A stretch of 31,477 nucleotides of DNA from Chloroflexota bacterium (GTDB lineage Bacteria > Chloroflexota > Dehalococcoidia > GIF9 > AB-539-J10). Within the stretch, counting starts at the first letter, position 1. The number at the start of each line of letters is the position of its first letter. Made by a program: the position numbers and the translations under genes. Below, piece after piece: positions 1-20,140 of the stretch. A model generated the notes under the pieces. That model did not search any database. It was given only the letters and a program-made list of their open reading frames with translations, and was not told the origin of the DNA. The DNA lies in assembly GCA_034190625.1 (NCBI GenBank), contig JAXHSX010000039.1:1-31477 (forward strand), read 5' to 3'.

Positions 1-466
1 TTGCGGATAGATTTAAGAATATGATAAGTTCAATTATTAGCCAATCGATAATACTTTTTGTGTATTCAATATCAAGAGTCTCAATATTGGTTGCGATATC
101 CTGCCCAAGTTCGGACATCAATCTGCAGAACCGTGTTGGAAGCTTTACTGGAAATGATAGACGCTAGGAGGAAATCTAGGAGCTAATATGCTCCTGAGCT
201 GAAACAAATGTTGCTTGGATTCTATTCGTAGGAGTGGAATTGAGGGACGTTGGGGTTTGCTTTCAATGTTCAGAAATTGGTGAGGTGAGATATTTGACTA
301 TTGCGCCTACGACGTGATAGTGGCTTTGTGGAAGGTGAGGATAACCTGACAAAGGTCGTCATCACATAGCTTATGGATATCGTAACATTGGTAATCTCAA
401 GGAGGATGTTTCTGCAAACAACGAGACAGCTACCAATACTAAGCTGCCAACACTAAGGTTTCACAA

Positions 467-493
467 GGTTTTTACGTCTATTGACGAAAAACC
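467..493 (-). terminator. Possible terminator hairpin downstream of nuoH
   Basis: Plus strand GGTTTTT(A)CGTC-TATT-GACGAAAAACC: an 11-bp stem with one bulge, about 50 nt past the nuoH stop. There is no clear U-tract. Confidence 0.3.
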
Positions 494-542
494 GGTTTCT
501 AGAGATATCATGGGACTTGAAGCATTATTAAAGATTAAGGCG

Positions 543-1514
543 CTATAGTACTCCTGCAAACTTCAGCCCAACAGCTACTAAAAGTTGAATCATTGCTATA
601 GGAGCGAGCCATTTTAGACACATAGTTACCATTTGCTCAATTCTAAGTCTGGCAAACAGCGCTTTAATGCAAGCTAAAATGAAGACAATGAGTAAAGTTT
701 TGATAATAAAGGCAACAAATCCTACTATTGAGGCAGGGATTCCCAATAAGTGTACTCCAGGAATATCAAAGCCGCCCAGAAAGAGGACTGATATCAAAGC
801 TGCTCCCGCCACCATTTCTATATTTATCATTATCCTCATCAAGGCTAACCTTCCGCCAGAATACTCTACCAGGGGGCCGTCAACGATTTCTTGTTCTGCT
901 GTGGGAATATCGAAGGGAATACGTTCTAGCTTACCGACAAGGGCGATAATAGCCACGATAAAAGATAGAGGCAACCAGCAAATAAACCAGACATGACTAA
1001 GTTGATATTGAACGATACCTGACAGGCTCCAGACCCCGGCTACTAAAGCAGGGGAAAGTATTGCCAGGAAGAAGGGGACTTCGTATCCAAAAAGCTGGGT
1101 AAGAACTCTAAAGCCACCAATAGTGCCAAAAGGATTCGTGGAGTGCCATCCAGCTAGGAATAGAAGGAGGGCGGGGAGGGTCAGAAGATAGGCTACCACT
1201 ATTATGTCCCCAGTGAAGGGAAAAACCGAGCTGGAAGACCAAATAGGAATATAAATAAACGCAGTGGCTACAGCCGCAATACCAAATATGGGCACCGCAG
1301 TAAACATCTTTCTATCTGCTTCCTTAGGAACCAACCCTTCCTTGGACAGGAGTTTCCAGAAATCAGCTATGGGCTGATAAAGCGGTGGACCTACCCGATT
1401 CTGCAAGCGAGCGTAAACCTTTCTATCAATGAACTCGCAGAATAGAGAATAGAAAAAGACAAATACGAATCCAGGGAAGACTAGTAAATTAACTATGGCG
1501 ATCCCAACGTTCAT
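543..1514 (-). CDS. nuoH: NuoH/MbhM/HycD-family membrane subunit (323 aa)
   Basis: DRKVYARLQNRVGPP and ERIPFDIPTAEQEIVDGPLVEYSG motifs; multiple hydrophobic helices; GGAG RBS 8 nt upstream of ATG. Confidence 0.92.
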   Translation of the reverse strand: MNVGIAIVNLLVFPGFVFVFFYSLFCEFIDRKVYARLQNRVGPPLYQPIADFWKLLSKEGLVPKEADRKMFTAVPIFGIAAVATAFIYIPIWSSSSVFPFTGDIIVVAYLLTLPALLLFLAGWHSTNPFGTIGGFRVLTQLFGYEVPFFLAILSPALVAGVWSLSGIVQYQLSHVWFICWLPLSFIVAIIALVGKLERIPFDIPTAEQEIVDGPLVEYSGGRLALMRIMINIEMVAGAALISVLFLGGFDIPGVHLLGIPASIVGFVAFIIKTLLIVFILACIKALFARLRIEQMVTMCLKWLAPIAMIQLLVAVGLKFAGVL

Positions 1515-1576
1515 CTCATTTACTCCTTTGCCTATTTTGTCACCCTCAGCTTATTCCTCTACTTTCAAGGGAGAGT

Positions 1577-2221
1577 CTAGGTGAGGGATTCTCCATTTAA
1601 CCATGCTCTTTTATCTGGCCCCCAAAATTTTACAATTTCCTTCGCGATCCATTCTAGTGGAAGATCCGCTTGTGGGCTATATTTCTCCAAATACTCTATA
1701 TATGGGTTGCCATCTAAATCTGTCTGGGGCAGAATCGCATCATGTATTCCGTCAAATTCTACTGTAGGGAGCTTATTCTTCGTACATAGTTCCCTGTCGA
1801 AAGTAGCAGCAGCACTAATCCATTTTCCACTAAGAAAGAACTGGTTATAGCCATGGCGGGGAAAAATGTTTGTGCCCATCTTTTCCATTAGGTGAGCGGG
1901 TATTCTGTGATTTTTAATTTTTGCGAAGGAAAGTCTACTGGGAATTAGTGCAGCTCTGCCTAGTGCTGTCAGAAGCACTGCCTTTTGAACACAGTATCCC
2001 TTCTCTCTTCTGAGTACAGTACTGGCCTTGAAATCCTCGAGAAATACAGACGCCATATAAATATTGTATCGAATTGAATCACGGACGAAATAAAAAAGCT
2101 TGATAACTTTCTCTACCTCGCTCGTACAGTCAAGAGTTAGCTTTTCTGCTAACTCTTGAATCATCTCATGTTCCGAGTCAATAGCTTCTGTAGGTTTCAA
2201 ATAAGACTTAAGATCATCCAT
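1577..2221 (-). CDS. Transglutaminase-like superfamily protein (214 aa)
   Basis: GYCVQKAVLLTALGRAALIP (catalytic Cys motif), RHGYNQF (His), ATFD (Asp); N-terminal YLKPTEAIDSEH segment typical of the family. Confidence 0.85.
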   Translation of the reverse strand: MDDLKSYLKPTEAIDSEHEMIQELAEKLTLDCTSEVEKVIKLFYFVRDSIRYNIYMASVFLEDFKASTVLRREKGYCVQKAVLLTALGRAALIPSRLSFAKIKNHRIPAHLMEKMGTNIFPRHGYNQFFLSGKWISAAATFDRELCTKNKLPTVEFDGIHDAILPQTDLDGNPYIEYLEKYSPQADLPLEWIAKEIVKFWGPDKRAWLNGESLT

Positions 2222-2230
2222 TGTTAAGAG

Positions 2231-2596
2231 CTACCCAACAGGCTGACTTAGCTTATCAGGAGTATATAGCGCCTGCGATTTATCCATTATAGAAATCATA
2301 GCTTCATGGGTCAAGTGAATTGCGTCTCTAGGGCAGTACTCTTCACAAAGCCCACAGAAACAACATTTTCCTAAGTGTATTTGGGGATACTTTTTCCCTT
2401 CATCGACTTCTACAAGCTCGATAGCCTTGTTGGGGCAAGCCAAAGAACATACAGGGCAACCTGTGCATTTCTCCAAGTCTAATAATTGTCTCCCTCTATA
2501 GCCATCTACTGGAGGCAGACTCTGATAGGGAAATTGCAAGGTCATGGGTTTTTTGAACAGATTCCTCATAATAGCAGCAGGTCTAAATATGCTCAT
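2231..2596 (-). CDS. NuoI/MbhN/MbxN-like 2x[4Fe-4S] subunit, module 2 (121 aa)
   Basis: KPMTLQFPY, YRGR, CTGCPVCSLACP and CCFCGLCEEYCP motifs. Confidence 0.9.
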   Translation of the reverse strand: MSIFRPAAIMRNLFKKPMTLQFPYQSLPPVDGYRGRQLLDLEKCTGCPVCSLACPNKAIELVEVDEGKKYPQIHLGKCCFCGLCEEYCPRDAIHLTHEAMISIMDKSQALYTPDKLSQPVG

Positions 2597-2602
2597 TTTA
2601 AC

Positions 2603-3742
2603 TCACCTATCCATATCAGCAGGGCAAGAATCCAAACTCCAGTATATCGCAGGAATGTCTGCTATATATGCTCCCTTGGCCAAATAAGGAAACGCAGCTA
2701 AGTTCTGAGAGAAACTGGGAGCCCTAACTTTTACTCTATAGGGTCTCTCGCTTCCATCGCTTACCATGTGGTAGCAAAATTCACCTCTAGCTGCCTCACA
2801 GCAGAAATAGGCTTCCCCTTTAGCAACTTTTTTAGTTAGACCCCATTTTACCCTAAAATCTCCCTCTGGTATCCTTTCCAGTAATTGCCTGATTATAGAG
2901 ATGCTTTCAATTATTTCCCCTCTTCTACACAAAGCCCGGGAGTAGGCATCTCCTTTTTCAAGAGATACAACTTTGAAATTCACGTAGGGGTAAGCGTCAT
3001 AAGGCTCGTCTTTCCTTACATCGGCTACCACGCCGGATGCTCTCAGATTAGGGCCAGTGATCCCCATCGCTATAGCATCATCAGGTCTAAGGATGCCCAC
3101 ATTTTCCAGCCGCATGACAAATGTAGTATTGTAGAAAACGAGATTATCATAGAGTTTCACTTGATTTTCTGTATAATCAAGCGCCTTCAGGGCTTCTTCC
3201 TTGAACCCTTGAGGTAAATCTCTTCTAACACCACCAGGTATGAAATAGCAAGGATATATTCTGCCCCCGGTTGCTAGCTCATTTAGGCGTATGATCTTTT
3301 CTCTATCCCCCCAAGCGATTCTAGTACCGCTATCAAGACCTAGAGCCATGCACATTATCCCGAGCCATGTTATATGGCTTTGTATTCTCCCCAGCTCTGC
3401 CATTATAGTCCGGATGAATTTACCTCTTTGAGGTGCCTCGATACCGGCGGCTATTTCGACAACATTCGCATATCCCATCTCGCAGGAGAAAGGGTCCAGG
3501 ACATTTATCCTATCAACCAACATAGAATTCTGGGCATGGTTTCTATACTCCATAAGCCTTTCAAAACCTCTATGGAGATACCCTGGATGGAAGGTTAGAT
3601 CAACCACTTCCTCGCCGTCGCATTTTAATGAAACATGCACATGGCCTGAGGCTGGGTGCTGAGGACCAAATGGAATGGTAGTGAAGCTTATTTCCCTTTC
3701 CTCTAATTCACTTTTAGCCAAAATACCCTTTGTCCTCTCCAT
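2603..3742 (-). CDS. NuoD/MbxL(MbsL)-like large subunit without the NiFe-binding CxxC motifs, module 2 (about 379 aa)
   Basis: GPQHP, GYLHRGFE, GGVRRD, EAARGE and C-terminal DSCPADMDR. The L1 position reads DRINVLD and there is no C-terminal extension. Start trimmed from the ORF track to ATG 3742; TTG at 3721 is an alternative. Confidence 0.88.
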   Translation of the reverse strand: MERTKGILAKSELEEREISFTTIPFGPQHPASGHVHVSLKCDGEEVVDLTFHPGYLHRGFERLMEYRNHAQNSMLVDRINVLDPFSCEMGYANVVEIAAGIEAPQRGKFIRTIMAELGRIQSHITWLGIMCMALGLDSGTRIAWGDREKIIRLNELATGGRIYPCYFIPGGVRRDLPQGFKEEALKALDYTENQVKLYDNLVFYNTTFVMRLENVGILRPDDAIAMGITGPNLRASGVVADVRKDEPYDAYPYVNFKVVSLEKGDAYSRALCRRGEIIESISIIRQLLERIPEGDFRVKWGLTKKVAKGEAYFCCEAARGEFCYHMVSDGSERPYRVKVRAPSFSQNLAAFPYLAKGAYIADIPAIYWSLDSCPADMDR

Positions 3743-4199
3743 AATATTCCCTTTTAACATATTCACGGATATCAAAATCTTTTCTAAATGGTGGCAACTC
3801 TTCCCAATCCTCAAGAAACAAGGGGGTGAGGTTTGGGTTTCCTTCAAATTCTACACCAAACATTTCATGACCTTCTCTCTCATGGATTTGTGCTCCTATC
3901 CATAGGTCAATGATCGATTTGATCCTAGGAGATTCTCTAGGAATCCTGGTCTTCACGATCGCTCTTATTTTCTTGCTATGTGACCAAAGATGATAGATCA
4001 GCTCAAATTCTCCTTCATTGATATAATCAACGAGGGCGACATCTGAAAGGTGATCAAATCCCATATCTTTAAGATTAGATAAAATTTGGTGAAATTTTAT
4101 CTCTTTTACAGTGAGTAGAATTTTCTTATCTTCCGAGGCTGAGGAGAGAACCTCCTTGGGGAATTTAGACTCAATGGCGGAGATAATTTCGTTGTCCAT
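3714..4199 (-). CDS. NuoC/MbxK-like subunit, module 2 (about 161 aa)
   Basis: GFDHLSDVALVDY, HEREGHEMFGVEFEGNP, PFRKDF. Start trimmed to ATG 4199, which has a GAAGGT RBS and sits just after the upstream stop. Confidence 0.88.
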   Translation of the reverse strand: MDNEIISAIESKFPKEVLSSASEDKKILLTVKEIKFHQILSNLKDMGFDHLSDVALVDYINEGEFELIYHLWSHSKKIRAIVKTRIPRESPRIKSIIDLWIGAQIHEREGHEMFGVEFEGNPNLTPLFLEDWEELPPFRKDFDIREYVKREYYGEDKGYFG

Positions 4200-4200
4200 A

Positions 4201-4650
4201 TTAATGACCTTCAAATCCGCCTTTTATAGCATTCATAGCCATAACTATTCCGTGACCAATATTCTCAGGTTTAGGAGGGCAACCAAGAATCCACATATCC
4301 ACGGGTATGTAGTCATCTATCCGCTTTACAGTAGCATAGGAATCCCAGTACATCCCGCCTGTCATAGGGCAGCTTCCTAAGGCTAAAACATATTTGGGCG
4401 AAGCCATTTGGTCATAGATCATCTTTATACGCTTAACAGCCTTCTTGGTTACATATCCTGCTACGATAAGGACATCAGCATGCCTAGGAGTTGGTACAGC
4501 TAATATTCCAAATCTTTCCATGTCATAGCCAGATCCCACCCAGGGAAGCAATTCCATAAATCCACAAGCGGAGAAGTAATTGATAGCCCATAAGGAATAG
4601 GTGCGCGCTTCAGCTGTGGATTTTATCGCTCGCGGAGTTAAACTCTTCAT
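4201..4650 (-). CDS. NuoB/MbxJ-like Fe-S subunit with only three cluster Cys, module 2 (149 aa)
   Basis: FSACGFME, TPRHADVL, ALGSCPMTGG, GCPPKPE; GGAGG RBS. Confidence 0.88.
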   Translation of the reverse strand: MKSLTPRAIKSTAEARTYSLWAINYFSACGFMELLPWVGSGYDMERFGILAVPTPRHADVLIVAGYVTKKAVKRIKMIYDQMASPKYVLALGSCPMTGGMYWDSYATVKRIDDYIPVDMWILGCPPKPENIGHGIVMAMNAIKGGFEGH

Positions 4651-4705
4651 TTATCAGCCTCCGATACGTGCGCTATCTGATTCGACCATTCTGTATTCAT
4701 AGTCT

Positions 4706-5239
4706 TCAAGATCGGTATCCTTGAGTCATGGCCTCCAATGAATTGCCAAGCACTTCCTTAAATAAAAGTACCAGTTCATCAAGGGAACATTCGACTTCAC
4801 TTGATATTGTAGTGCCGAAAGAGAGCATCTTCGGCTGAATACCTAAAACAATCATTTCTGAGCCGAGTTCTTTTTTAAGGTAATTGATTAACAAGTATAG
4901 AGGGAGGGAATGAGTAGATGGCATTGTCTCCTCTATTTCGTGGTCTTTAATTAGCTTGATCGTGCCGGCTTTTCCTCCTATTTCTGCAGCATCTATAAGC
5001 AATATATGGGAAGGAGATAGCCTGCGTAGCAATCCAGTGAAGTTCTCTGGAGCGTTTCCTGTAGCCAAAACTTCAACGTTCGGTATTTCTGCCAAAGCCT
5101 CTTTGAGCTTCTTCGCTGCCGATAGTCCCAGGGCATCATCGCCACCTAATTCGTTGCCAACGCCCAAAACGACAATTCGTCTCCAGCCACTTAAGGCTTC
5201 CTCAATCCCATTTTTCAAGTTACTTTGAGTAATTACCAT
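4706..5239 (-). CDS. hycI: HycI-type hydrogenase maturation endopeptidase (177 aa)
   Basis: GVGNELGGDDALG, PENFTG, LIDAA, STHSLPL; start overlaps the upstream stop (ATGGTAA). Confidence 0.9.
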   Translation of the reverse strand: MVITQSNLKNGIEEALSGWRRIVVLGVGNELGGDDALGLSAAKKLKEALAEIPNVEVLATGNAPENFTGLLRRLSPSHILLIDAAEIGGKAGTIKLIKDHEIEETMPSTHSLPLYLLINYLKKELGSEMIVLGIQPKMLSFGTTISSEVECSLDELVLLFKEVLGNSLEAMTQGYRS

Positions 5240-5592
5240 TGTTTTGATATTAATGATTCCTTGTCATAGCTGGCAAGCTCAAATTCCTCTGAAAGAGTAA
5301 TTGCCCCGAAGGGACAACTTTCAGCACACTGCCCACAAAATGCGCACCTGTAGAGGAGAAAAACAGGCCGGCTTTCCTCTTCTCCTACCTGCTCCATAAT
5401 TATCGCCTTAGCAGGACAGTCCGTAGCACATAATCCCTTGCACTTTAGTGAGCACTTCTCTGGATCGTATATAGGTCTGCCACGAAAATTCTTGGGAATA
5501 TCCAGTCTCTCGAAAGGATAGAGCACTGTAGCTCTCTTTTTAAACAGATACCTGCTAATCTCGGGGAACATAGCGCCGATTTTCGACATCAC
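5233..5592 (-). CDS. NuoI/MbhN-like 2x[4Fe-4S] subunit, module 1 (119 aa)
   Basis: ATVLYPFE, FRGRP, CSLKCKGLCATDCP, CAFCGQCAESCP; GTGA overlap with the large-subunit stop. Confidence 0.9.
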   Translation of the reverse strand: MMSKIGAMFPEISRYLFKKRATVLYPFERLDIPKNFRGRPIYDPEKCSLKCKGLCATDCPAKAIIMEQVGEEESRPVFLLYRCAFCGQCAESCPFGAITLSEEFELASYDKESLISKQW

Positions 5593-6809
5593 ACTCTCCT
5601 AGCCTCTCCCTTCAATGGAGAGGGAGATTGGTACCTATCAGAGTACCATTTCATGCTGTATTTCCTTAGCTCTTCCCAGCTTATTGCTTGTTTTTCTTTT
5701 CTATTTCTATTCTCACTGTCAAGAATCATGATCCTATCCATACAGGCCATGCATGGATCGATTGCTGCAAATACGATAGGAATATCAGCAATATATCCGC
5801 CCTTGAGGCAATGAAGCACTGAGGTGATATTTGCCAGAGTAGGCGTCCTAACCTTGAGCCTTTCTGGATGATCAGTACCATTACTCCTGATATAGTGAAG
5901 CAATTCTCCTCTAGGGGCTTCAGTCTTGCTTACTACCTCGCCCGCGGGTACCTTGCGCGGTGCTTTGGTTCTGAATTCCCCCTCGGGCAACTCTTCAATT
6001 ATTTGGCGGCACATCTTGCAACTCTCAATTACTTCTAATACTCTGACAACGGTTCTTCCTAAGACATCGCCAAGGTCTGAGGTGACAACCTTGAAATCCA
6101 GATATGGATAGGCAGCGTACGGGTCATCTCTACGAACATCATATTCTACACCAGAGCCTCTGGCGGTAGGACCGCAAGCGCAAAGTTCTATCGCCTTTTC
6201 CTTGGGGAGCAATCCTACTCCTTCGGTTCTGCGCAGGAAAGTGACCTCTGTACTAGCTACCCCAAGATAATATTCAGTTCTTTCCTTGAGTTGCTGAATG
6301 CCCTTTAAGATTTGGGGTTTCATCTCATCAGTTATATTGCGTCTTACCCCGCCGATAGTATTCATGCCATAGTTAACCCTGTTGCCTGAGATAATCTCGA
6401 GTAGATCCATAACTATTTCTCGATCTCTCCAGCTATACATAAACAGAGTATCGAATCCCAGTTCGTGTCCCGCTACTCCGAGCCAAAGGAGATGGCTATG
6501 TATTCTTTCTAATTCGCAGACTAAGGTACGGATATAAAGTCCCCTTTTCGGAACTTCCAAACCGAGTAACTCCTCTACCCCTTGGCAAAAAGTCGTGGAG
6601 TGTATATGAGAGCATATTCCACAGATCCTCGCGGTAAGATAGATATCTTGGATATAATTTCCCAGTTCGCCAGCCTTCTCAATTCCGCGGTGGTTATATC
6701 CCAGACGTACACCTATATCTACTATTGTTTCCCCATCTACAGTGACTGTCAGATTAATGGGTTCTTTCAGTGCCGGATGTTGTGGACCGATAGGAATAGT
6801 GACAGCCAT
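5589..6809 (-). CDS. Group 4 (Mbh/4g-like) [NiFe] hydrogenase large subunit, module 1 (406 aa)
   Basis: IPIGPQHPALKEP, L1 RICGICSHIH, EAPRGE, L2 DPCMACMDR, followed by a cleavable C-terminal extension. Confidence 0.95.
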   Translation of the reverse strand: MAVTIPIGPQHPALKEPINLTVTVDGETIVDIGVRLGYNHRGIEKAGELGNYIQDIYLTARICGICSHIHSTTFCQGVEELLGLEVPKRGLYIRTLVCELERIHSHLLWLGVAGHELGFDTLFMYSWRDREIVMDLLEIISGNRVNYGMNTIGGVRRNITDEMKPQILKGIQQLKERTEYYLGVASTEVTFLRRTEGVGLLPKEKAIELCACGPTARGSGVEYDVRRDDPYAAYPYLDFKVVTSDLGDVLGRTVVRVLEVIESCKMCRQIIEELPEGEFRTKAPRKVPAGEVVSKTEAPRGELLHYIRSNGTDHPERLKVRTPTLANITSVLHCLKGGYIADIPIVFAAIDPCMACMDRIMILDSENRNRKEKQAISWEELRKYSMKWYSDRYQSPSPLKGEARRV

Positions 6810-6810
6810 T

Positions 6811-7275
6811 TCAGCCCTCCTTAACCTCGACCTTGTAATCCTTTCTCAAAGGATAGACCCCTTCCTCCCAATCGTCTGGGAGAATCAATCTCCTAGGATC
6901 GGGGTGGTCTTTCACCTTTAAACCTAGTAGATCCTGTATCTCTCGCTCATAAAGAATGGCGCCAGGCATGACCGGGGTAATAGTATCAAGTACAGGATTT
7001 GTCTTAGGGACAAAAGTGCTTAAGCTGATGGTTACTCCCTGGCAAAAGAAGTGATACAAGACCTCAATATCCTCTCCCACATCGACTGCAGTTATGGTGG
7101 TAATGTGGACCATGCCAAAACTTTGCTTGAGATAATCGATGACTTCCTTAACCTTGGGCAAGGGAATTCGAACAAATATTCTGCGTTCCCGAGGTATCCT
7201 AACTTTGAGGATTTGCTCGCCGAAAGTCTCTTTGAGTTTGTTCTCGACATCACTCGCCACTGACATGAATTTCAT
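6811..7275 (-). CDS. NuoC/MbhK-like subunit, module 1 (154 aa)
   Basis: HITTITAVD, YEREIQDLLG, HPDPRRL, YPLRK. Confidence 0.9.
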   Translation of the reverse strand: MKFMSVASDVENKLKETFGEQILKVRIPRERRIFVRIPLPKVKEVIDYLKQSFGMVHITTITAVDVGEDIEVLYHFFCQGVTISLSTFVPKTNPVLDTITPVMPGAILYEREIQDLLGLKVKDHPDPRRLILPDDWEEGVYPLRKDYKVEVKEG

Positions 7276-7735
7276 TTTTCCTTTTCAGTTCTTCCAAAAG
7301 TTGGTTATAACTGGGATCAAGATCTCCCAGAAGCTTTACTACCCCATGGATGATGGCATCGGGTCGGGGGGGGCAACCAGGTATATATACATTCACCGGG
7401 ATTGCCTTATCTATGCCACCTAGGACGTTATAGCAGCCCCAAAACACATCACCGGAGCAAGCGCAGGAACCAATAGCTATAACGAACTTCGGGTCAGGCA
7501 TCTGCTCGTATATTCTAACAGCTCTATTCTTCATTTGCCTGGTTATCGGGCCGCAGCACAGAAGGACATCAGCATGTCTCGGGGTTCCCTTAAGCAATAT
7601 ACCAAACCTTTCAATATCAAACCTCGGCATAAGGGCAGCAAGGGTTTCAATGTCACAACCATTGCAGCCACCGGTGTTTAGGTGACATACCCATGGTGAT
7701 TTCACTCTGGACCACTTGGTCAAACTTTCAAGCAT
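7250..7735 (-). CDS. Group 4 hydrogenase small subunit (NuoB/MbhJ-like), module 1 (161 aa)
   Basis: GGCNGCDIE (CxxC), TPRHADVL, IGSCACSG, PGCPPRP: four cluster Cys. Confidence 0.93.
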   Translation of the reverse strand: MLESLTKWSRVKSPWVCHLNTGGCNGCDIETLAALMPRFDIERFGILLKGTPRHADVLLCCGPITRQMKNRAVRIYEQMPDPKFVIAIGSCACSGDVFWGCYNVLGGIDKAIPVNVYIPGCPPRPDAIIHGVVKLLGDLDPSYNQLLEELKRKNEIHVSGE

Positions 7736-7778
7736 GAATAAACTCCCTGCATCGTCTCATGGAGGCGGCGCGATGTTT

Positions 7779-8099
7779 TCAATCAGTGAGCAAAATTACT
7801 ACTGTTATCAAAGCGATGACTAAATAAATAATGCCTATCCAAGCAATCCTACCACTTGGTACAGTGGCAATTACCAGGGCAGCTACGTGCAATATGGTAA
7901 AGAAAAAGGCAAAATGAAAGAAGCGGTAATTATGCTGTACTTTCCCTCCTGGAATATCTTCTCCACAAGCATAAGTGCTTAGCTTTCCTTCCTCCATGCT
8001 TGGTTTCGGCCCCAGGGATTTGCTCAATCTGTAAACCAAGTAACCGATAACTAAGAATATTAGGAAGGCAACTGGCGGATAGAGAAGAAATTGACTCAT
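7779..8099 (-). CDS. nuoA: NuoA-like membrane subunit (106 aa)
   Basis: Three hydrophobic helices; loop GKLSTYACGE matches the NuoA YECG loop. Confidence 0.8.
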   Translation of the reverse strand: MSQFLLYPPVAFLIFLVIGYLVYRLSKSLGPKPSMEEGKLSTYACGEDIPGGKVQHNYRFFHFAFFFTILHVAALVIATVPSGRIAWIGIIYLVIALITVVILLTD

Positions 8100-9572
8100 T
8101 TAGCTTCCTCCTAAACTGGTTATCATGAAGCTTACCACGGGATCAACTATTTTCAAACCCAGCTCGGGATATACGCCAAGTGCTACAGTGAGGATGACCA
8201 TTATAATTATAGGTATATATATAGATGGTGGAATTCCCTTTGCCTCCTTGGCTTTTTCCGAGATATCACTGGAGAAGAGGATCTTATTGATAGCTGGCAA
8301 ATAGTATACGAGAGAGAGCACACTATTTACTATGAGTAGGATCATGGCCACAATGCCCCAACCACCGACGTCGACACCTGCTCTACAGATGAAGAATTTA
8401 CTGATAAAGCCATTGAGCGGAGGCACACCAGCTAGTGCAAACCCAAAGAAGGCAAAGGCAACGCCAATCAATGGCAATTTACGCCCTATTCCCCGCATCT
8501 CCTCCAAATCCCTGGTTCCGATAGAATAAATAATAGCCCCAGCGCATAAAAAGGCTCCACCTTTTATCACAGCATGGTTTAGTATATGTAGAAATCCTCC
8601 GCGGAATCCATATTCGCCACCGGTGGAAAGATACGCGAAAGCTAATCCTACCCCCAATAAGATATATCCCATCTGAGCAATACTGGAATAAGCCAACATT
8701 CGTTTCAGGTCTCGCTGCACTATAGCTATGAAGTTGCCTACGAACATGCTGACGATGCCGAAGATAATTAATACCACTCCAGAATTGACTCCTGGTAATA
8801 CAGCCAGTGCTTTGATCATGGCGATGAATCCCGCTCCGATAATTATCCCTGACAACATGGCGCTTATTCCACTGGGAGCAGCACTATGCGCATCGGGGAG
8901 CCATGTGTGGAGAGGTACTATAGCTGCCTTTACCCCGAAGCCAATAATGATGAGTACAACCGCACCGATTGCCGTTAGAGAATCCATACCAGCAGTTAAA
9001 TTGGCTAAGATAGCGAGGTCTAAACTTCCGGTATACATGAATATCAGCGAGATGCCCATAAGAGCCATAAGGGAACCAGCAACGCTCATAAAGATATATT
9101 TTATCGCTGCTTCTATGGGTTCCCACCTATCTTTCTCGAAAGCAACTAAGACATAAGAAGGGATAGCCATAACCTCGAAGAAAACAAACATGTTAAATAA
9201 ATCACCAGCAAATCCAATTCCCACAATGCCGGCGATCATAATGAGCAAAAGGCTATAATATCTACCTAAACCATCAAAATGTTCCATATAGCTTATAGAG
9301 AAGAGGGATACTAATGCTCCAAGTCCCACCGCTACGAGTCCCAGGAATATAGCTAGACCATTGGCTTCAAGATAGGTTTGAGCTCCCCCGATGGACCATG
9401 TTAGTAACTCTGTTCCAGAACGAAGTGTGAAGATCTGGATGCCCGAGATCACTAAGAAGATAAAAGAAACGACTCCGGTATACTTAGGCTTGGGCAGCAG
9501 GCGAGCAAAAAGATAGCTTACGAGGGCTCCGATAAACAAGGTGATGATAGGTACAAGAGGTGTTACATTCAT
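8100..9572 (-). CDS. Antiporter-like proton-pumping subunit (NuoM/N, MbhH, HyfB family; about 490 aa)
   Basis: FVFFEVM, EAAIKY, KAAIVPLHTWLPDAHSAAPSGISA, KRMLAYSSI, GVPPLNGFISK. Start trimmed to ATG 9572. Confidence 0.9.
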   Translation of the reverse strand: MNVTPLVPIITLFIGALVSYLFARLLPKPKYTGVVSFIFLVISGIQIFTLRSGTELLTWSIGGAQTYLEANGLAIFLGLVAVGLGALVSLFSISYMEHFDGLGRYYSLLLIMIAGIVGIGFAGDLFNMFVFFEVMAIPSYVLVAFEKDRWEPIEAAIKYIFMSVAGSLMALMGISLIFMYTGSLDLAILANLTAGMDSLTAIGAVVLIIIGFGVKAAIVPLHTWLPDAHSAAPSGISAMLSGIIIGAGFIAMIKALAVLPGVNSGVVLIIFGIVSMFVGNFIAIVQRDLKRMLAYSSIAQMGYILLGVGLAFAYLSTGGEYGFRGGFLHILNHAVIKGGAFLCAGAIIYSIGTRDLEEMRGIGRKLPLIGVAFAFFGFALAGVPPLNGFISKFFICRAGVDVGGWGIVAMILLIVNSVLSLVYYLPAINKILFSSDISEKAKEAKGIPPSIYIPIIIMVILTVALGVYPELGLKIVDPVVSFMITSLGGS

Positions 9573-9658
9573 TACTCTTTCGCTCCACTTGAGTTGCTTC
9601 GCTTTAGCCGCAATACCATTACTTTGTTTCCAATCCGTTTTAATTCTTGGTTCTTCAT
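9572..9658 (-). CDS. Putative 28-aa bridging mini-ORF (MKNQELKRIGNKVMVLRLKRSNSSGAKE)
   Basis: The ATG overlaps the nuoL-like stop (ATGA) and its TAA overlaps the next ATG (TAATG). It fills the gap exactly. Confidence 0.3.
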   Translation of the reverse strand: MKNQELKRIGNKVMVLRLKRSNSSGAKE

Positions 9659-11430
9659 ACTGTCCAAACAAGTAGCAACACCAGGAATATGACAAACCCA
9701 ATGACTATTCCTAAGTTGTTATAATTCAAGTCTCCAGTTTGTATTCTCCTGAATTGCTGCCAAAACCTAAAGAGACCTCTAACACATTTATTATAGAAAA
9801 TATCAAACCAATAGGCTTTCATTAGAGGCAAAGTTAAAGCAGAGGGCTTTCTAAATGCATTGATGACAGTTGCCTTCCATTTTATGGTAAGTAGGGCTAT
9901 CAGAATGGCTACGCCAACGGTAATCCAGATAGTGGGACCGGCGAAGGCATGCTGGATGAAGTTCCCTAAAGTAATATGTGCTATGGAATAATGAGGAAGG
10001 GAAGAGGCCATGCTGGCGGTATAAGGTGATATGTAAAGCCAGAATAAAAGAGATGCCGCAGCCAACACTATCAGTGGTACTGTCATCTGCCAGGGCGCCT
10101 CGTGGATCTTCACCTTGCTTCTTCTATCACCCTGGAAAGTGAGCCAGTACATTCGCCAGGAGTAGGCAGCGGTTAAAAATGCCGTTATAGCAAGAAGTGC
10201 GAAAGCCTCATATAACCCTCCCGCGTGTAAATGTGCCAGAATCATGTGTTTAGAGAAGAAACCAGTCAAGACAGGAATTCCTACCAATGAGAGGAGACCG
10301 AGAATAGCGCAAATGTGGGTAATCTTCATGTGCTTGCGCAATCCTCCCATTTCACGCATGTCCTTGGTTCCTGTTACATAAATTATGGCGCCAGCGCAAA
10401 GGAACAAGAGGGCTTTGAATATTCCGTGAGATAAAAGATAGAATTTACTGGCTAGAATTGCGCCTGCTCCGATGGCTGCCATCATGTATCCCAGTTGGCT
10501 GATAGTGGAGTAGGCGAGCACCCGTTTAATATCCCATTCTGTTAAGGCTATAGTGGCTGCCAGGAATGCAGTTATAGTACCAATCCACAGTATCGCTGTA
10601 GACCACCCAGCTAATCCCATAAAGATAGGATAGCTACGAGCGAGCAGATATACTCCAGCATTGACTAAACAAGCAGCATGGATCAGAGAAGTAATCGTCG
10701 TGGGAGCCACCATAGCATCAGGTAACCAAACGTGAAGAGGAAATTGGGCTGACTTGCCCACTGCCCCTGCGATAAATCCGGCACCCGCTAGTCCAAGAAG
10801 GACAGGAGAGACGGTACTCGCGACGTTCATTATCTCGAAGACGTTGAGGCTTCCTGTAGCGTGCCATAGGATCAATATTCCAGCTAAGAATCCAATATCC
10901 CCTATCCTTGTTACGATAAACGCTTTGGTTCCCGCAGGTATCGGTTCGGGATCGTGGTAGTAGTAACCAATCAAAGCATAAGAGCAAAAACCAATGATCT
11001 CCCAGAAGATGTACATAACCAAAAGGTTACTGGTTAAAGCCAGACCAATCATGCCGCCGATGAAGAACAAGGTCTGCCAGTAGTATCGTGAAAGAGAATA
11101 CTCATGCTCAGCGTGCTTCATATAGCGTATGGAGTATAATAGAGCCAACGCTCCAATACACCCGGCAATTATGGCGACAAAGACACTTAAAGAGTCAAGA
11201 CAAATCCCTAGGCTGATATTTGCTCCCGGTATCCACAGAAAGTCATTGACGCTACCTTCTGTAATAGAAGGAATGAGTGATAGAGTTAAACCAGCGGTGA
11301 TAAATCCCAGAGTAATGGCATATATAGTTCTCGCTTTGGGGCTTATCTTCTCGACAACGTAACAAAAAGGCCCGCCTATTATCGGTATGACTACAGCCAG
11401 TATAGCGATTAGTGTGCTGCTTTCCATCAT
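9655..11430 (-). CDS. nuoL: NuoL-like antiporter subunit (591 aa)
   Basis: FWEIIGFCSYALIGY, TRIGD, GKSAQFPLHVWLPDAM, IKRVLAYSTISQLG, HGIFKALLFL, GFFSK, C-terminal QTG. Confidence 0.92.
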   Translation of the reverse strand: MMESSTLIAILAVVIPIIGGPFCYVVEKISPKARTIYAITLGFITAGLTLSLIPSITEGSVNDFLWIPGANISLGICLDSLSVFVAIIAGCIGALALLYSIRYMKHAEHEYSLSRYYWQTLFFIGGMIGLALTSNLLVMYIFWEIIGFCSYALIGYYYHDPEPIPAGTKAFIVTRIGDIGFLAGILILWHATGSLNVFEIMNVASTVSPVLLGLAGAGFIAGAVGKSAQFPLHVWLPDAMVAPTTITSLIHAACLVNAGVYLLARSYPIFMGLAGWSTAILWIGTITAFLAATIALTEWDIKRVLAYSTISQLGYMMAAIGAGAILASKFYLLSHGIFKALLFLCAGAIIYVTGTKDMREMGGLRKHMKITHICAILGLLSLVGIPVLTGFFSKHMILAHLHAGGLYEAFALLAITAFLTAAYSWRMYWLTFQGDRRSKVKIHEAPWQMTVPLIVLAAASLLFWLYISPYTASMASSLPHYSIAHITLGNFIQHAFAGPTIWITVGVAILIALLTIKWKATVINAFRKPSALTLPLMKAYWFDIFYNKCVRGLFRFWQQFRRIQTGDLNYNNLGIVIGFVIFLVLLLVWTV

Positions 11431-11736
11431 TTATCCGCGAAGTTTCTTGAGGTCATCAATGTCAAGAGTTCCTGTATGTCGGTAAGACCTTACTATCAAA
11501 GCCATGGCAACAGCGGCAGTAATTGCTTCAATGACTATGATGGTTATCACGATAGCCTGGGCGATTTGCTCGTTGCCCTGGAAAAAACCGGCGAGAATAA
11601 AGCTCAAGGTAACTCCTTTGGCAATTACCTCAATGCCGATGAGTAACTGAACTATGTTCTTTCTGGCTATCAGACAATAAATCCCAATGCCGATAAGTAT
11701 GACAATGGCCAGCATGTAAAGTTGCCACAAGTTCAT
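11431..11736 (-). CDS. nuoK: NuoK/MnhC-like subunit (101 aa)
   Basis: Three helices with GIE and IEA conserved Glu; ends TLDIDDLKKLRG; ATGA coupled to the upstream gene. Confidence 0.9.
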   Translation of the reverse strand: MNLWQLYMLAIVILIGIGIYCLIARKNIVQLLIGIEVIAKGVTLSFILAGFFQGNEQIAQAIVITIIVIEAITAAVAMALIVRSYRHTGTLDIDDLKKLRG

Positions 11737-11960
11737 CGCTGTATCCTTTCCTTGACTAGTGTGAGAATGCCGAGGGTTCCTGATAAAATGATTAACAATT
11801 GTAGGAAAACATCAAGCGAGCGAAATTCCCAGAGTGCTTGGCTGAATGACTTAGCAACAGTGAGGCTAATATCAGGCTGGGGTGGAGGAATAAGTAGTGC
11901 AATAGAAAAGCCGATGAAAACCAAGGTTGCTATTATACCTATTATCTCTTTTGTATTCAT
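11733..11960 (-). CDS. Small membrane subunit, MbhE/MnhB N-terminal-like (NuoJ C-half equivalent; 75 aa)
   Basis: Two hydrophobic helices; WEFRSLDVFLQ resembles the xxRxxDTxxE motif. Confidence 0.65.
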   Translation of the reverse strand: MNTKEIIGIIATLVFIGFSIALLIPPPQPDISLTVAKSFSQALWEFRSLDVFLQLLIILSGTLGILTLVKERIQR

Positions 11961-11961
11961 T

Positions 11962-12228
11962 TTACTTTCTTTTGGTTAAGCTGATGACAGAGACAAATAA
12001 AGCTGTAATCAATCCGGCGCAGATAGAAAGTTCAAATACTCCAGCGTAGGGAGAGTCAAGCTTGAAAAATATTATTGCTATCATTACGCTCAACACTGCC
12101 AGTGAAATGGCAGAAAAAAGCATTTCTTTGAAGCGTACTGCCAAAACAGCCGAGGCAATAGCGGCAATAATTAAAACGATACTGATAGCGTCAATTGGCA
12201 CTAGCTTTGCCTCCAAAGGTGCTTCCAT
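11962..12228 (-). CDS. DUF4040/MbhD-like small membrane subunit (NuoJ N-half equivalent; 88 aa)
   Basis: Three helices; LDSPYAGVFELSICAG resembles the APxxAxxExxVGAG motif. Confidence 0.7.
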   Translation of the reverse strand: MEAPLEAKLVPIDAISIVLIIAAIASAVLAVRFKEMLFSAISLAVLSVMIAIIFFKLDSPYAGVFELSICAGLITALFVSVISLTKRK

Positions 12229-12427: not shown

Positions 12428-12456
12428 ATTATAAACAGGTTTTAAAGCATCGTCAA
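12428..12456 (-). promoter_or_regulatory. Sigma70-type promoter of the membrane-complex operon
   Basis: Minus strand TTGACG (12456-12451), N17, TATAAT (12433-12428). Confidence 0.8.
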
Positions 12457-12541: not shown

Positions 12542-12970
12542 CTAAACTATCATGGCTATCTTAAATAATCGCTGGGTATCCGTATGTAGCTCTTGCCATA
12601 TCTTGGGAATATTATCCTGTTCTATCCACAAAGCCTCGCCAACATCGCTATCTGCCCTGAGTTCTCCGCCCAACAACCTGGCGATATAATCAATATAGAT
12701 AACATGTAAGGTAGTTTTTTTATGAATTTTAACAATACGATCGAAGGAAACTAAAGGGGTGATCAGTTCTATCTCCAGATTTGTCTCTTCTTTAACCTCT
12801 CTTCTAATCCCTTCTATAATTTCCTCACCGTACTCAAGTTTTCCTCCTGGGCAAATCCATTTTCCTTGCCAGTAACCACCTCGCTCCTTCTTGTGTCTCA
12901 CGATAAGTATTCTATCTTTATCATCCTTGATAATTGCTCCAACAGCTACTAGTATATGTTCCGCTGTCAC
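12542..12970 (-). CDS. Nudix hydrolase (142 aa)
   Basis: Nudix box GGKLEYGEEIIEGIRREVKEETNL; GTG start 2 nt after the protease stop. Confidence 0.92.
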   Translation of the reverse strand: MTAEHILVAVGAIIKDDKDRILIVRHKKERGGYWQGKWICPGGKLEYGEEIIEGIRREVKEETNLEIELITPLVSFDRIVKIHKKTTLHVIYIDYIARLLGGELRADSDVGEALWIEQDNIPKIWQELHTDTQRLFKIAMIV

Positions 12971-12972
12971 CT

Positions 12973-13431
12973 TTAACCTCGAATGGTTTCTTCCATGACC
13001 ATCCTAACCGCTTCAGGAATAACTCGCTCTACGTCGGGTGTGCATTTCTCACTAAACTTAGTAACGTCTTTTACTTCTATAGCGAATATGGTGATCTTTC
13101 GGGGCATTGGTAAGTTAAGTAGCTTGCCTAATTCTAGAGCAGTGACTAAGTTTATTTGATGGGGTGATGAAGGATGTTTAGCAAAGGAGAAATCTTGCGG
13201 TTCCATACAATATATCTGGCCTACTTTTCCTTCCTTAGTTTGGATGGCATCAATAATAATAACTTCGTCATAGCCTACGACATAATCTAAAAAGCTGAGG
13301 CCAGCTAAACTCGACTCAGCTACAGTAACTTGGGGGTTACTAAAGGTCTTGCTTATTTCTTGTACTACCCTAATACCTACAGCGTCGTCACAAAGAATGG
13401 GATTTCCCAGTCCTAGAATCAATGTTTTCAT
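12973..13431 (-). CDS. HyaD/HupD-type hydrogenase maturation protease (152 aa)
   Basis: LGLGNPILCDDAVG, IIIDAI, SPHQINL. Confidence 0.92.
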   Translation of the reverse strand: MKTLILGLGNPILCDDAVGIRVVQEISKTFSNPQVTVAESSLAGLSFLDYVVGYDEVIIIDAIQTKEGKVGQIYCMEPQDFSFAKHPSSPHQINLVTALELGKLLNLPMPRKITIFAIEVKDVTKFSEKCTPDVERVIPEAVRMVMEETIRG

Positions 13432-13467
13432 TTCGCTTCATGAAACATTAGTTGATTCGCCCTGTAA

Positions 13468-13695
13468 TTATGAGTGTAGCGAAAGATCGCATTGTTTAGG
13501 TAATGTAATAGCCCTAAACTTGAAATTCTTGCCTCTTGACTTTCCGCCAAGATCAAGCAATTGAGCCAAGGTTTTAGCCTCTCTCAAGCCTCGTGGTGGT
13601 TGGGTACAGCCATCGCAGCCTGTGATTAGAATGGAATTGTAAGGGGACAGGAAATCGAAAATTTCATCTAAAGGTTTTTGACTTGTTATTATCAC
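13468..13695 (-). pseudogene. metV: Truncated metV copy (75 aa; 5' third only)
   Basis: Near-identical to the first ~70 aa of the 20410..21057 product, then diverges after KQCD and stops. The C-terminal Fe-S/Zn domain is missing. Confidence 0.85.
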
Positions 13696-13708
13696 TGCCT
13701 AGTCTCCT
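13486..13708. repeat. Direct repeat copy A (223 bp)
   Basis: Aligns ungapped to 20848..21070 with 10 mismatches by manual count. Confidence 0.95.
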
Positions 13709-14858
13709 GGGAACAATCGCTTTCTATTCTTTCCTTAAACTGCTGAAGTTCTTTACGGAAAGTATCAGGATATCTTGGAGATACAGAACAGAAATGAAGT
13801 CTCTCTGCAAGGCCAATTTGGCTTAAGATTTTCTTCAAAGCTGTGGTTGACCTTTTAGCCTCCTTACTTCCTGTCTTCGATTTGCAATCTTCCTCAGGGC
13901 AGGCTGCTATCAATATGCCGTCTACGCTGTTCTGAAAAGCCTCTACGATATGCAGGGGATCAACTCTCGCAGCACAGGGTAAATCTATAACACGAACATT
14001 AGAATCAAATTCTTCACCAAGTGGGGGAAAAGTGGACCATTGACAACGAAATACCATAATTTTTGGTGTTTTCATCTCTGAGGATAGCTTAGATATTAAT
14101 GCTGATATGAGATCTTCTTCCCAGTGATCGAGATCTAAAGCGAAAGCGGGGCATAGGGTGACACATAAGCCGCAGCCACGGCACAATTCTAGGTCGAAGC
14201 TAGCCGCTCCGCTCTCTAGTTTGGCAGCATCGTAGGGACAATAGAATGCACAGTTACCACAAGCGATACATTTATTCCTATCTACTTTGACTTTCAGGGT
14301 ATGCCGCTTAAGCTTGATCATATCTTTGCCATAGCCAAGCTGTTCTAGCACAAGATTAAGTGCTATGACTCTGCGGCCGGTTATTGAGCTCCCCCTGTCA
14401 AATCGGCAGTAATCCTCATCACAGGCAAGGATGTTGATGCTTTTTATACCTAGGGGAATAATTTTCAATAATATCTCTGATGGGATACGACCAACACAGG
14501 GAACAGACAAGGGTATGAAGTTCGAAGTTCCGAAGAGCTTCCCCACATCTTCAAAATCCGGGGCACATCCTTTACACATAATAACTAATGAATCGGATTC
14601 ATATTCCTGCTTTGCCCTCTTTATGTATCTGAACAAGGAATCTATATCGTAGTAAATAACGTCGATAGCTCCAGCGGGGCAAGTGGAGTAGCAAATTGCG
14701 CAGGACTGACACTTCTCTATCTCCAGGAGCATTTTGCCTGTTTCAGAGTCTTTTTTTATTGCGTCAAAAGGACAAGCTGAGGCGCACATAGTACAGCTGC
14801 TACAGGATTCCTCGTTTATTCTAAGGGCAACTTTTTGTTTATTGTCTGATAGTTCCAA
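13692..14858 (-). CDS. Tandem [2x4Fe-4S ferredoxin + MvhD-like domain] x2 protein (388 aa)
   Basis: Four CxxCxxCxxxCP motifs in two pairs. Each pair is followed by an MvhD-like domain (MCKGC..VPCVGR..ACDEDYC; FRCQWS..LPCAARVDP..ACPEEDC). TTG start with AGGAG RBS. Confidence 0.85.
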   Translation of the reverse strand: MELSDNKQKVALRINEESCSSCTMCASACPFDAIKKDSETGKMLLEIEKCQSCAICYSTCPAGAIDVIYYDIDSLFRYIKRAKQEYESDSLVIMCKGCAPDFEDVGKLFGTSNFIPLSVPCVGRIPSEILLKIIPLGIKSINILACDEDYCRFDRGSSITGRRVIALNLVLEQLGYGKDMIKLKRHTLKVKVDRNKCIACGNCAFYCPYDAAKLESGAASFDLELCRGCGLCVTLCPAFALDLDHWEEDLISALISKLSSEMKTPKIMVFRCQWSTFPPLGEEFDSNVRVIDLPCAARVDPLHIVEAFQNSVDGILIAACPEEDCKSKTGSKEAKRSTTALKKILSQIGLAERLHFCSVSPRYPDTFRKELQQFKERIESDCSQETRQ

Positions 14859-14890
14859 TCAATCCTCTCCTTTTTAATTATTTTGGAGAA

Positions 14891-16738: not shown

Positions 16739-16769
16739 TATCTAGTCTCCACATTAGCTTATTCGGTCT

Positions 16770-18242: not shown

Positions 18243-18243
18243 T

Positions 18244-19236: not shown

Positions 19237-19295
19237 GTTCACTCTCCTTATTTAACCTTTTCATGTATTATAACTTCCATCTATTACTAAATTAT

Positions 19296-20128: not shown

Positions 20129-20140
20129 GTGAACCGCCTT

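Follow-up and report, generated by a model that had tools for sequence, protein, structure and literature searches.

Can a single membrane arm of the complex I type serve two different catalytic heads in the same cell? The question is raised by an operon on a 31,477-nt stretch of Chloroflexota DNA (assembly GCA_034190625.1, contig JAXHSX010000039.1), hereafter called the window, which is the whole of contig C81 of a metagenome-assembled genome (MAG) of 1.25 Mb, in 147 contigs and 71% complete. Loci and genomes are labelled L and G, respectively, the window's own MAG being G000. The original prediction, made from the sequence of the window, held that one set of membrane genes is combined here with two interchangeable heads, only one of which has the residues of a [NiFe] hydrogenase. 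Our analysis makes it fairly probable that the operon encodes one complex-I-type arm and two alternative heads sharing a site formed by NuoH and NuoA. As for the wider proposal, in which this arm is capped alternately, in one cell, by a [NiFe] head or by a head resembling MBS (the membrane-bound reductase of sulfane sulfur), the heads being mobile cassettes around a conserved arm, we give it about even chances.

One set of membrane genes and two B-C-D-I modules

Genes were called as open reading frames (ORFs) and families were assigned with Pfam. Seventeen co-oriented, intact genes, with short or overlapping junctions, make up the operon, which runs on the minus strand from 12228 to 543 in the order J1-orf75-K-L-M/N-A, B1-C1-D1-I1-HycI, B2-C2-D2-I2, a transglutaminase-core gene and NuoH. 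This confirms the single membrane set and the two complete B-C-D-I sets with hycI between them that had been predicted. The features, all on the minus strand, are the following.

12428..12456, minus strand: candidate operon promoter, sigma-70-like TTGACG-17-TATAAT with 11/12 matches, in the 313-nt gap 5' of J1
11962..12228, minus strand: J1, N-terminal half of a putative split NuoJ (MbhD-like), Pfam Oxidored_q3/MbhD
11733..11960, minus strand: orf75, C-terminal half of the putative split NuoJ, two predicted transmembrane (TM) helices, placed by alignment to unsplit NuoJ
11431..11736, minus strand: NuoK-like, Pfam Oxidored_q2, E 9e-23
9655..11430, minus strand: NuoL/NdhF-like antiporter-type subunit of 591 amino acids (aa), Pfam Proton_antipo_M and _N
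8100..9701, minus strand: NuoM/N-like antiporter-type subunit, Pfam Proton_antipo_M, start uncertain
7779..8099, minus strand: NuoA-like, three TM helices, Pfam Oxidored_q4
7250..7735, minus strand: B1, hydrogenase small subunit (NuoB/MbhJ-like), four proximal-cluster Cys in GGCNGCDIE, GSCAC and GCPP
6811..7275, minus strand: C1, NuoC-like, head 1, Pfam Complex1_30kDa
5589..6809, minus strand: D1, head-1 large subunit, NiFe motifs RICGIC and DPCMACMDR, best solved match MbhL
5233..5592, minus strand: I1, NuoI-like ferredoxin-type with 8 Cys, first motif Cx3Cx3Cx3CP
4706..5239, minus strand: HycI_a, predicted maturation endopeptidase for D1, Pfam HycI (PF01750)
4201..4650, minus strand: B2, MbsJ-like, shortened loop, ACGFMEL, GSCP and GCPP
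3714..4214, minus strand: C2, NuoC-like, head 2, Pfam Complex1_30kDa
2603..3742, minus strand: D2, MbsL-like, without NiFe CxxC, the ORF extending to 3847
2231..2596, minus strand: I2, NuoI-like, two canonical 4Fe-4S motifs
1577..2221, minus strand: soluble transglutaminase-core protein, Pfam Transglut_core, catalytic Cys motif GYCVQKA
543..1514, minus strand: NuoH, predicted head-docking anchor, Pfam NADHdh, E 2e-78

The start of the M/N gene probably lies downstream of 9701, since its homologues are 490 aa long.

The arrangement is unlikely to be an artefact of assembly. Exact-protein look-ups showed that the A-to-B1 and HycI-to-B2 junctions both recur in independent Logan contigs of run SRR24907504, where L042 spans HycI_b-Nudix-J1...A-B1-C1 (99.985% identical over 6763 nt) and L043 spans D1-I1-HycI-B2-C2. 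Misassembly or a chimera was therefore rejected, both junctions being reproduced by a second assembler and neither being flanked by repeats; moreover, the HycI-to-B2 edge cannot arise from the merger of two strains.

The identity of each head was judged by bit scores against solved protein chains. D1 carries both nickel-iron ligand motifs, in agreement with the prediction, and its C-terminal extension reaches 45 residues past the DPCxxCxxR motif, with the HycI gene directly downstream. Its best solved match is MbhL (6cfw_L, 323 bits) of the membrane-bound hydrogenase (MBH) of Pyrococcus furiosus, followed by Escherichia coli HycE. All four Cys of the proximal cluster are found in B1 (CNGC, GSC, GCPP), and the first cluster motif of I1 is spaced Cx3Cx3Cx3CP vs. 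the canonical CxxCxxCxxxCP. HycI is always located 3' of I1 in the relatives, and the last ~20 codons of HycI_a lie beyond the homology breakpoint (window 4767) with L129, the nearest D1 relative. A NuoH-like anchor and antiporter-like subunits share the gene cluster with head 1, and the same arm is found in the head-1-only operon L052. Head 1 is thus predicted to be a genuine [NiFe] hydrogenase head of group 4, served by a maturation protease of its own; on sequence criteria it falls with the group-4 [NiFe] hydrogenases, and not with the Mrp-linked Mbh (subgroup 4d).

Concerning head 2, D2 has neither CxxC motif, as predicted, nor a C-terminal extension, and it terminates exactly at ...DSCPADMDR, as NuoD and MbsL do. 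Its best solved match is P. furiosus MbsL (6u8y_L, 282 bits), ahead of Thermus thermophilus Nqo4 (254) and of MbhL (165). Likewise, B2 is best matched by MbsJ (6u8y_J, 144.6 bits), without gaps across 131 residues, NdhK reaching 122.5. The features of a complex I quinone reductase, namely Tyr87, His38 and the tandem Cys-Cys of NuoB, are all unmatched: the quinone ligand Tyr87 of Nqo4 is replaced by Val in D2, as in MbsL, His38 falls in a gap, and the B2 loop, three residues shorter than that of B1 (ACGF--MEL vs. GGCNGCDIE), bears a single Cys where NdhK has CC. Because the short loop with its single Cys (ACGF-M/L/I-EL), together with GSCP and GCPP, is kept in the whole B2 clade (L024-L027 and L126-L128), a proximal [4Fe-4S] cluster held by three Cys is predicted to be obligatory there.

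The same loop is three residues shorter in MbsJ of P. furiosus MBS than in MBH, the MBS proximal cluster is held by three Cys (C28, C93 and C123), and catalysis takes place at the Fe that no Cys coordinates; MbsL retains two of the four Cys, C85 and C385, both of which are dispensable for MBS activity (PMC7684303). In D2, the equivalent of C385 is present, and the position of C85 is occupied by Asn, with a Cys seven residues downstream (RIN...FSCE in the window and RAD...FSCE in G052, against DRIC...FSNE, with both MbsL Cys, in most of the D2 clade). Taken together, head 2 appears to be MBS-like in its catalytic signature and not a quinone reductase. By analogy with MBS, its chemistry would most likely be the ferredoxin-dependent reduction of polysulfide or of a related non-quinone acceptor. 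Of separate note, Bathyarchaeota-type proteins of ~600-664 aa (P0195-P0216), about 50% identical to D2, unite NuoB-, NuoD- and NuoI-like (4Fe-4S) domains in a single chain.

As regards the arm, J1 matches residues 13-75 of an unsplit NuoJ (159 aa, L039) at 57% identity, and orf75, which has no Pfam match, aligns to residues 90-152 of that protein (E 2e-8) and is kept at 55-70% identity in all loci of the arm clade, so that J1 and orf75 appear to be a split NuoJ. Against solved chains, the 591-aa subunit scores 298 bits with NdhF and 283 with Nqo12 (298-260 across NdhF, Nqo12 and NuoL), vs. 162 with MbhH, and NuoH is roughly equidistant from NdhA, Nqo8, MbhM and MbsM. Only two PF00361 antiporter-like genes were found, both in the operon and in G000 as a whole, vs. 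three (L, M and N) in complex I. The operon contains no genes of the Mrp E/F/G type, and a search of G000 (71% complete) gave no PF03334. These features describe a putative arm of the complex I type with two antiporter-like subunits, and not the Mrp-linked arm of Thermococcales Mbh and Mbs. The analogy with MBH and MBS drawn in the original prediction therefore holds at the sequence level of the heads, but not for the arm, which is of the NuoL/NdhF type without an Mrp module. Its Thermococcales framing was abandoned and an archaeal origin rejected: the host, uncultured and of the Dehalococcoidia type, is a bacterium (bL20 present, eL24 absent), and the nearest named relatives of the genes are found in Dehalococcoidales/Chloroflexota MAGs.

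Both modules are open and conserved. All eight head genes and hycI are uninterrupted, their cofactor ligands are kept and no excess of amino-acid changes was detected, so that neither frameshifts nor relaxed selection, which would have spoken against a working second module, were seen. Pairwise ratios of nonsynonymous to synonymous substitution rates (dN/dS) are 0.03-0.10 for B, C, D and I of both heads (0.10 for D1 vs. L129), 0.04-0.19 for the arm genes and 0.18-0.34 for hycI. As dS is unsaturated only vs. L129 (0.4-0.5), the head-2 values are approximate. These ratios indicate purifying selection on both heads.

The same arm with either head

The loci closest in D2 (L024, L126 and L128), as well as G118, display the order J1-orf75-K-L-MN-A-B2-C2-D2-I2-H, with head 2 only, and a short contig of G052 covers B2-C2-D2-I2-H. 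The mirror image came from a metagenome survey with D1: L052, a 102.7-kb contig, carries J1-orf75-K-L-MN-A-B1-C1-D1-I1-HycI, a decayed transglutaminase gene and H, with head 1 only, and L053 and L054 begin in the same way. In L055 and L051 the order is ...MN-A-H-B1-C1-D1-I1-HycI, and L040 likewise shows H-B1-C1-D1-I1-HycI; a reading of L040 as head 2-H-head 1 was not supportable, since L051 and L055 have A-H-B1. Finally, the nearest D1 relative, L129 (91% identical at the aa level and 86% at the nt level), carries C1-D1-I1-HycI, the transglutaminase gene and H.

Compared with L129, the window has one 2.5-kb insertion, at 4766-2222, which contains the end of hycI and B2 to I2. Compared with L024, it has two, at 7777-4651 (B1 to HycI) and at 2230-1529 (the transglutaminase gene). 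At the DNA level, the window is thus the exact union of the head-1-only and head-2-only types. For the left junction (window 4651-4766), no piece of nuoA nor any other recognisable source was found. A plain insertion of head 1 and hycI into a head-2 operon, as could be read from L024, was superseded by the mirror-image loci L052 and L129. The transglutaminase-core gene goes with the head-1 operons: it is 90% identical in L129 (2086-2859), where it also lies between HycI and NuoH, it persists as decayed remnants in L052 (12105-12424) and L055 (9765-10329), and it is absent from the head-2-only operons. Its product might act in assembly or proteolysis. The double-head order of the original prediction was recovered in one population only, that of the window, and single-head versions are common. 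No further genomes of the D1 clade were found among 400 genomes sampled at class level.

The arm proteins of the single-head loci are 65-89% identical to those of the window, NuoH being 86-88% identical to its counterparts in both L052 and L024. Trees of single genes and of the concatenated set unite all these arms in one clade, which has a long stem and 100% support. Inside this clade, the arms with head 1 only are nested among the head-2 arms, next to L024, and the window groups with G118, which has head 2. Monophyly of the head-2-only arms was rejected by the approximately unbiased (AU) test (p = 2e-6), for a group that was named after earlier trees had been seen. The alignment columns that separate the head-1 from the head-2 sets number 10 of 333 in NuoH and 4 of 110 in NuoA; most of the changes at them are conservative, and the window shows a mixture of the two states. 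Since the arm clade does not split by head and diagnostic positions are few, the sequences point to a single arm lineage rather than to a pair of paralogues, each suited to one head. The idea that arms are specialised for one type of head was likewise considered, and found unsupported by the arm trees and by the diagnostic positions.

A few observations concern the neighbours of these operons. In G118 (contig G118:C11; L131 and L132), NuoL is 88% identical to that of the window, vs. 66-69% for NuoK, NuoM/N, NuoA and NuoH, a disparity that suggests recombination within the arm of this operon. Directly 3' of its arm and head 2, the same contig carries an NfnB/GltD-like gene and an Ech-like hydrogenase cluster, whose B and D genes are separated by an Nfn/HdrA-like gene. 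In L126 (positions 1-3667; GCA_963986145.1, CAXCWI010000071.1), a third head-like set is located ~1 kb 5' of the arm and head-2 operon, beyond two small ORFs. It comprises NuoB-, NuoC- and NuoD-like genes, whose D protein shares 41% identity with D2, and then a gene for a 626-aa 4Fe-4S/pyridine-nucleotide-disulfide-oxidoreductase protein; membrane genes of its own are lacking.

The number of heads per arm was also counted by genome. G000 has two NuoD-like genes, two antiporter-like genes and one NuoH, and no separate arm for the second module, which the original prediction had named as a ground for rejecting it, was found in this 71% complete genome. A more complete case is G059 (one genome with G041, the contigs and coordinates of both being identical), which is 93% complete and belongs to the same family. 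Its head 1 is located on contig 25 (L028), among genes of the mvh/hdr type and without membrane genes, and its arm and head 2 are on contig 43 (L024); in total, G059 has exactly one NuoH, two NuoD-like and two antiporter-like genes. In G014 (93% complete), a more distant D2-like head stands beside mvh without membrane genes, and the genome's only NuoH belongs to one hydrogenase cluster. Because three other members of the family (G018, G007 and G118) have a NuoH for each head, arm sharing would be a feature of this arm clade and not of the whole family.

No cognate arm was found in G047 (88% complete), where the only NuoH detected belongs to an ordinary nuoBCDHIJKL-type cluster (L045). Here (L044, G047:C104, 8967-10490), D1 contains a frameshift and, at positions of Gly and Arg, two in-frame TGA codons, and I1 also has a frameshift, whereas the genes on either side (mvhA/G, B1, C1 and both hycI) have stayed intact. 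This decay fits a dependence of head 1 on the arm, as a single case.

Head-1 cassettes and the rival explanations

Across the D1 clade (75-91% identity, with many metagenomic members), B1-C1-D1-I1-HycI occurs in two settings. In the first, the cassette follows MvhD-MvhG-MvhA-(HdrA)-MvhD_fer-DUF5981 and precedes a second HycI (L028, L030, L032/33, L046, L048, L049 and L044). In the second, it is joined to the arm, through three different junctions: A to B1 (L052-54), H to B1 (L040, L051 and L055), and A to B1 with HycI to B2 (the window). In the D1 tree, the arm-linked states appear in two separate places among Mvh-linked ones. Three junctions in two parts of the tree point to selection for the linkage of head 1 to the arm, and since head 1 was re-linked repeatedly, this argues that it works with that arm. 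More distant D1 relatives (54-65% identity, from Caldiserica, Omnitrophota and many metagenomes) belong to standard hydrogenase operons, with antiporter-like genes and J-K-A followed by B-C-D-H-I-HycI, whose arms are the closest outgroups of the arm clade. As for head 2, lone B2-C2-D2-I2 sets occur in several phyla (L025-L027 and L127). The arm and head 1 may thus descend from a standard J-K-L-M-N-A-B-C-D-H-I-HycI hydrogenase operon, to whose arm B2-C2-D2-I2 would have been added later as a cassette; lineages would then have retained head 1, head 2 or both in cis, with shuffling of the heads.

A possible trace of such shuffling is visible next to the operon. A truncated 5' copy of a DUF5981/MetV-like gene (~70 codons, ORF 13468-13695) lies directly after MvhD_fer and before the second HycI; it is 96% identical to the start of the intact DUF5981 gene (20410-21057), the repeat pairing 13486-13708 with 20848-21070. 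It looks like a rearrangement scar at the place where relatives of the L048 type carry the head-1 cassette. The region 5' of the operon (12542-20164) contains genes for a Nudix protein, the second HycI (12973-13431), an MvhD+4Fe-4S fusion, an HdrA-like protein, MvhA, MvhG, MvhD and an ArsR-type regulator; positions 20410-31477 add DUF5981, two HdrA/NfnB-like flavoproteins, an HdrB/C-like CCG protein, another MvhD and a 1122-aa protein. Positions 12542-31477 therefore appear to form a large neighbourhood for electron bifurcation of the hydrogen/heterodisulfide type, in which the Mvh/HdrA cluster (13692-20164) is a likely source or sink of reduced ferredoxin. At the other end of the contig, no ORF of at least 60 aa and no Rfam match were found between nuoH and the contig end (window 1-542), and an Rfam scan found no RNA families in the window.

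Several points weigh against a shared arm. The double-headed order was found in one population only, and since G000 is 71% complete, the unassembled DNA could contain another NuoH or arm. Most close relatives have the head-1 cassette by MvhADG, HdrA, the MvhD-ferredoxin fusion and DUF5981, without membrane genes, a placement that would equally suit a soluble, arm-independent head 1. On the side of head 2, the window's D2 is without the MbsL C85 equivalent that most of its clade retains, the operon is without the Mrp module of true MBS, and dS is saturated, so that the dN/dS values average over time before the merger. Both heads also appear to be co-transcribed from one promoter, with no sequence sign of a switch. 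In addition, the assembly, expression and activity of both heads are predictions from sequence.

One rival reading is an arm used by head 2 only, head 1 being a soluble or loosely attached hydrogenase that works with Mvh, HdrA, MvhD-ferredoxin and DUF5981 and came to lie inside the operon by neutral rearrangement. Most loci of the D1 clade do place the cassette directly after the Mvh/HdrA/DUF5981 genes, and the truncated DUF5981 (13468-13695) marks its site in the Mvh-linked relatives. However, members of the D1 clade are also the sole head of arm operons (L052-L055, L051, L040 and L129), the more distant D1 relatives are all standard arm-linked hydrogenases, arm-linked and Mvh-linked D1 proteins are intermixed on the tree without long branches, three different types of junction join the cassette to the arm, and D1 is a pseudogene in G047, where no arm was found. 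We regard this explanation as unlikely, though it is the strongest of the alternatives. A poorer prospect is that there are two arms, one for each head, with a further NuoH and antiporter set hidden in the unassembled ~29% of the genome: G000 is a 71% complete assembly in 147 contigs, and in G018, G007 and G118 the hydrogenase-type and D2-type heads each have their own NuoH. Against it, G059, with the same two heads and 93% complete, has one NuoH and one antiporter-like pair, the arm clade is one orthologous lineage without a paralogous split, and the operon would then contain a head without an anchor.

The double-headed operon could also be a short-lived intermediate of cassette replacement, with one head newly inserted, the other about to be lost, and only one of them physiologically relevant. 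L129, at 86% nt identity, is without head 2 at the exact site and one 2.5-kb insertion apart, and single-head derivatives are common, the double order being confined to one population; but the intact state of the eight head genes and hycI, with catalytic residues present and no excess of amino-acid changes, and the retention of both heads by G059, at separate loci, make this as improbable as a hidden second arm. The interchangeability of the heads put forward in the original prediction is therefore retained in part: the arm is found with head 1, head 2 or both within one clade, and G059 combines two heads with one arm, but in most relatives the head-1 cassette stands apart from the arm, beside Mvh/Hdr.

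In the preferred reading, that of one arm and two alternative heads, each head would draw electrons from reduced ferredoxin through its NuoI-like subunit, and both would dock on the same NuoH/NuoA site, with one head per arm molecule. Head 1 would catalyse ferredoxin:H+ oxidoreduction with H2 evolution or, in reverse, the gradient-driven reduction of ferredoxin from H2. Head 2 would catalyse the more exergonic reduction of sulfane sulfur (or a similar acceptor) by ferredoxin, at the open Fe of its three-Cys cluster. With a common arm, the ion/electron ratio would be equal, and the two forms would differ in driving force only. Alternative use appears more plausible than a combined chain from H2 to sulfur, because nothing would be gained on balance if, on identical arms, head 1 ran in reverse while head 2 ran forwards. 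We infer the docking of both heads, the exclusive use of the site, the acceptor of head 2 and the regulation of head choice from these comparisons.

Since the genes look co-transcribed, control of head choice could lie in nickel supply and HycI maturation, in assembly or in substrate availability. A promoter and terminator scan of the operon revealed no convincing internal promoters or terminators, the counts of promoter-like sites being at chance level, and thus gave no sign that the two heads are regulated separately; the site at 12428..12456 is itself weak evidence of an operon promoter, the number of such sites in the region not being above chance. Another sigma-70-like site (TTGACC-17-TATAAT, 2286-2314, minus strand) lies inside I2, just 5' of the transglutaminase gene and nuoH; it could let nuoH be transcribed separately, with the same reservation that such counts are at chance level.

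Significance and comparison with known systems

Complex I is thought to originate from a soluble hydrogenase-type module and an Mrp-type membrane module, and its head is proposed to have passed from proton reduction to sulfur reduction and then to quinone reduction (PMC8165549, Yu et al. 2021). If the proposed sharing is true, the operon would show, in a living organism, the head exchange that has been put forward for the path from hydrogenase through sulfur reductase to complex I, and its docking interface would tolerate such an exchange, as would also follow from a clade having one arm and either head. It would also offer a natural system in which to see how coupling survives a changed chemistry and how assembly picks between competing heads, and it would bear on what the non-hydrogenase, non-quinone heads that are widespread in uncultured anaerobes reduce. 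The metabolic annotation of MAGs is affected as well: from the lack of membrane genes it does not follow that a lone nuoBCDI-like cassette is a fragment or a soluble enzyme.

To our knowledge, all characterised relatives (MBH, MBS, formate hydrogenlyase (FHL), NDH-1 and complex I) have a dedicated head per arm. No description of a two-head/one-arm system, nor of MBS-like complexes in Dehalococcoidia, was found in the literature searched, which is not proof of absence.

Solved homologues exist for the pairing of either head with NuoH (6CFW and 6U8Y). With MBH (P. furiosus, 6CFW), the window shares the B-C-D-I (MbhJ-K-L-N) make-up of head 1, the NiFe CxxC motifs, the four-Cys cluster, the NuoH-like anchor and the antiporter-like subunits. 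It differs in its bacterial host, in having no genes for the sodium module MbhA-C (Mrp E/F/G type), in having two antiporter-like subunits, one of the NuoL/NdhF type, vs. the single MbhH, and in an anchor that would be common to a second head. With MBS (P. furiosus, 6U8Y), the likeness extends to the best matches of D2 and B2 (MbsL and MbsJ), the short loop, the predicted three-Cys cluster, Val at the position of Tyr87, the absence of NiFe ligands from D2 with its C-terminal Cys kept, and an arm with two antiporter-like subunits. However, the Mrp-type distal module (MbsA-C) is missing, the larger antiporter subunit is of the NuoL/NdhF type instead of the MbsH/MbsH' pair, B2 is without even the non-coordinating Cys (C25) of MbsJ, D2 has Asn at MbsL C85, and the arm is phylogenetically a hydrogenase arm.

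In Thermococcales, MBH and MBS are encoded in distinct operons, which the sulfur-responsive regulator SurR controls and each of which has an arm and an anchor of its own. The likeness lies in the presence of an H2-evolving and a sulfur-reducing relative of complex I in one cell, presumably as alternatives for the oxidation of ferredoxin, whereas the window has one arm, one NuoH and both heads in one operon. Cyanobacterial NDH-1L and NDH-1MS also combine one core of the complex I family with alternative modules in the same cell. NDH-1 exchanges membrane subunits (NdhD/NdhF paralogues with Cup proteins) and keeps its Q-module head constant; the window would do the reverse. Finally, the energy-converting hydrogenase-related (Ehr) complexes of Marreiros et al. 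2013 are reportedly relatives of complex I and of group-4 hydrogenases whose D subunit has neither the NiFe ligands nor the quinone-binding residues, and they are said to be stand-alone complexes. Operons combining the arm with head 2, such as L024, would belong under the Ehr heading; judged by that reported description, the window is set apart from it, its head 2 appearing as the alternative to a hydrogenase head, on an arm that belongs to a genuine hydrogenase.

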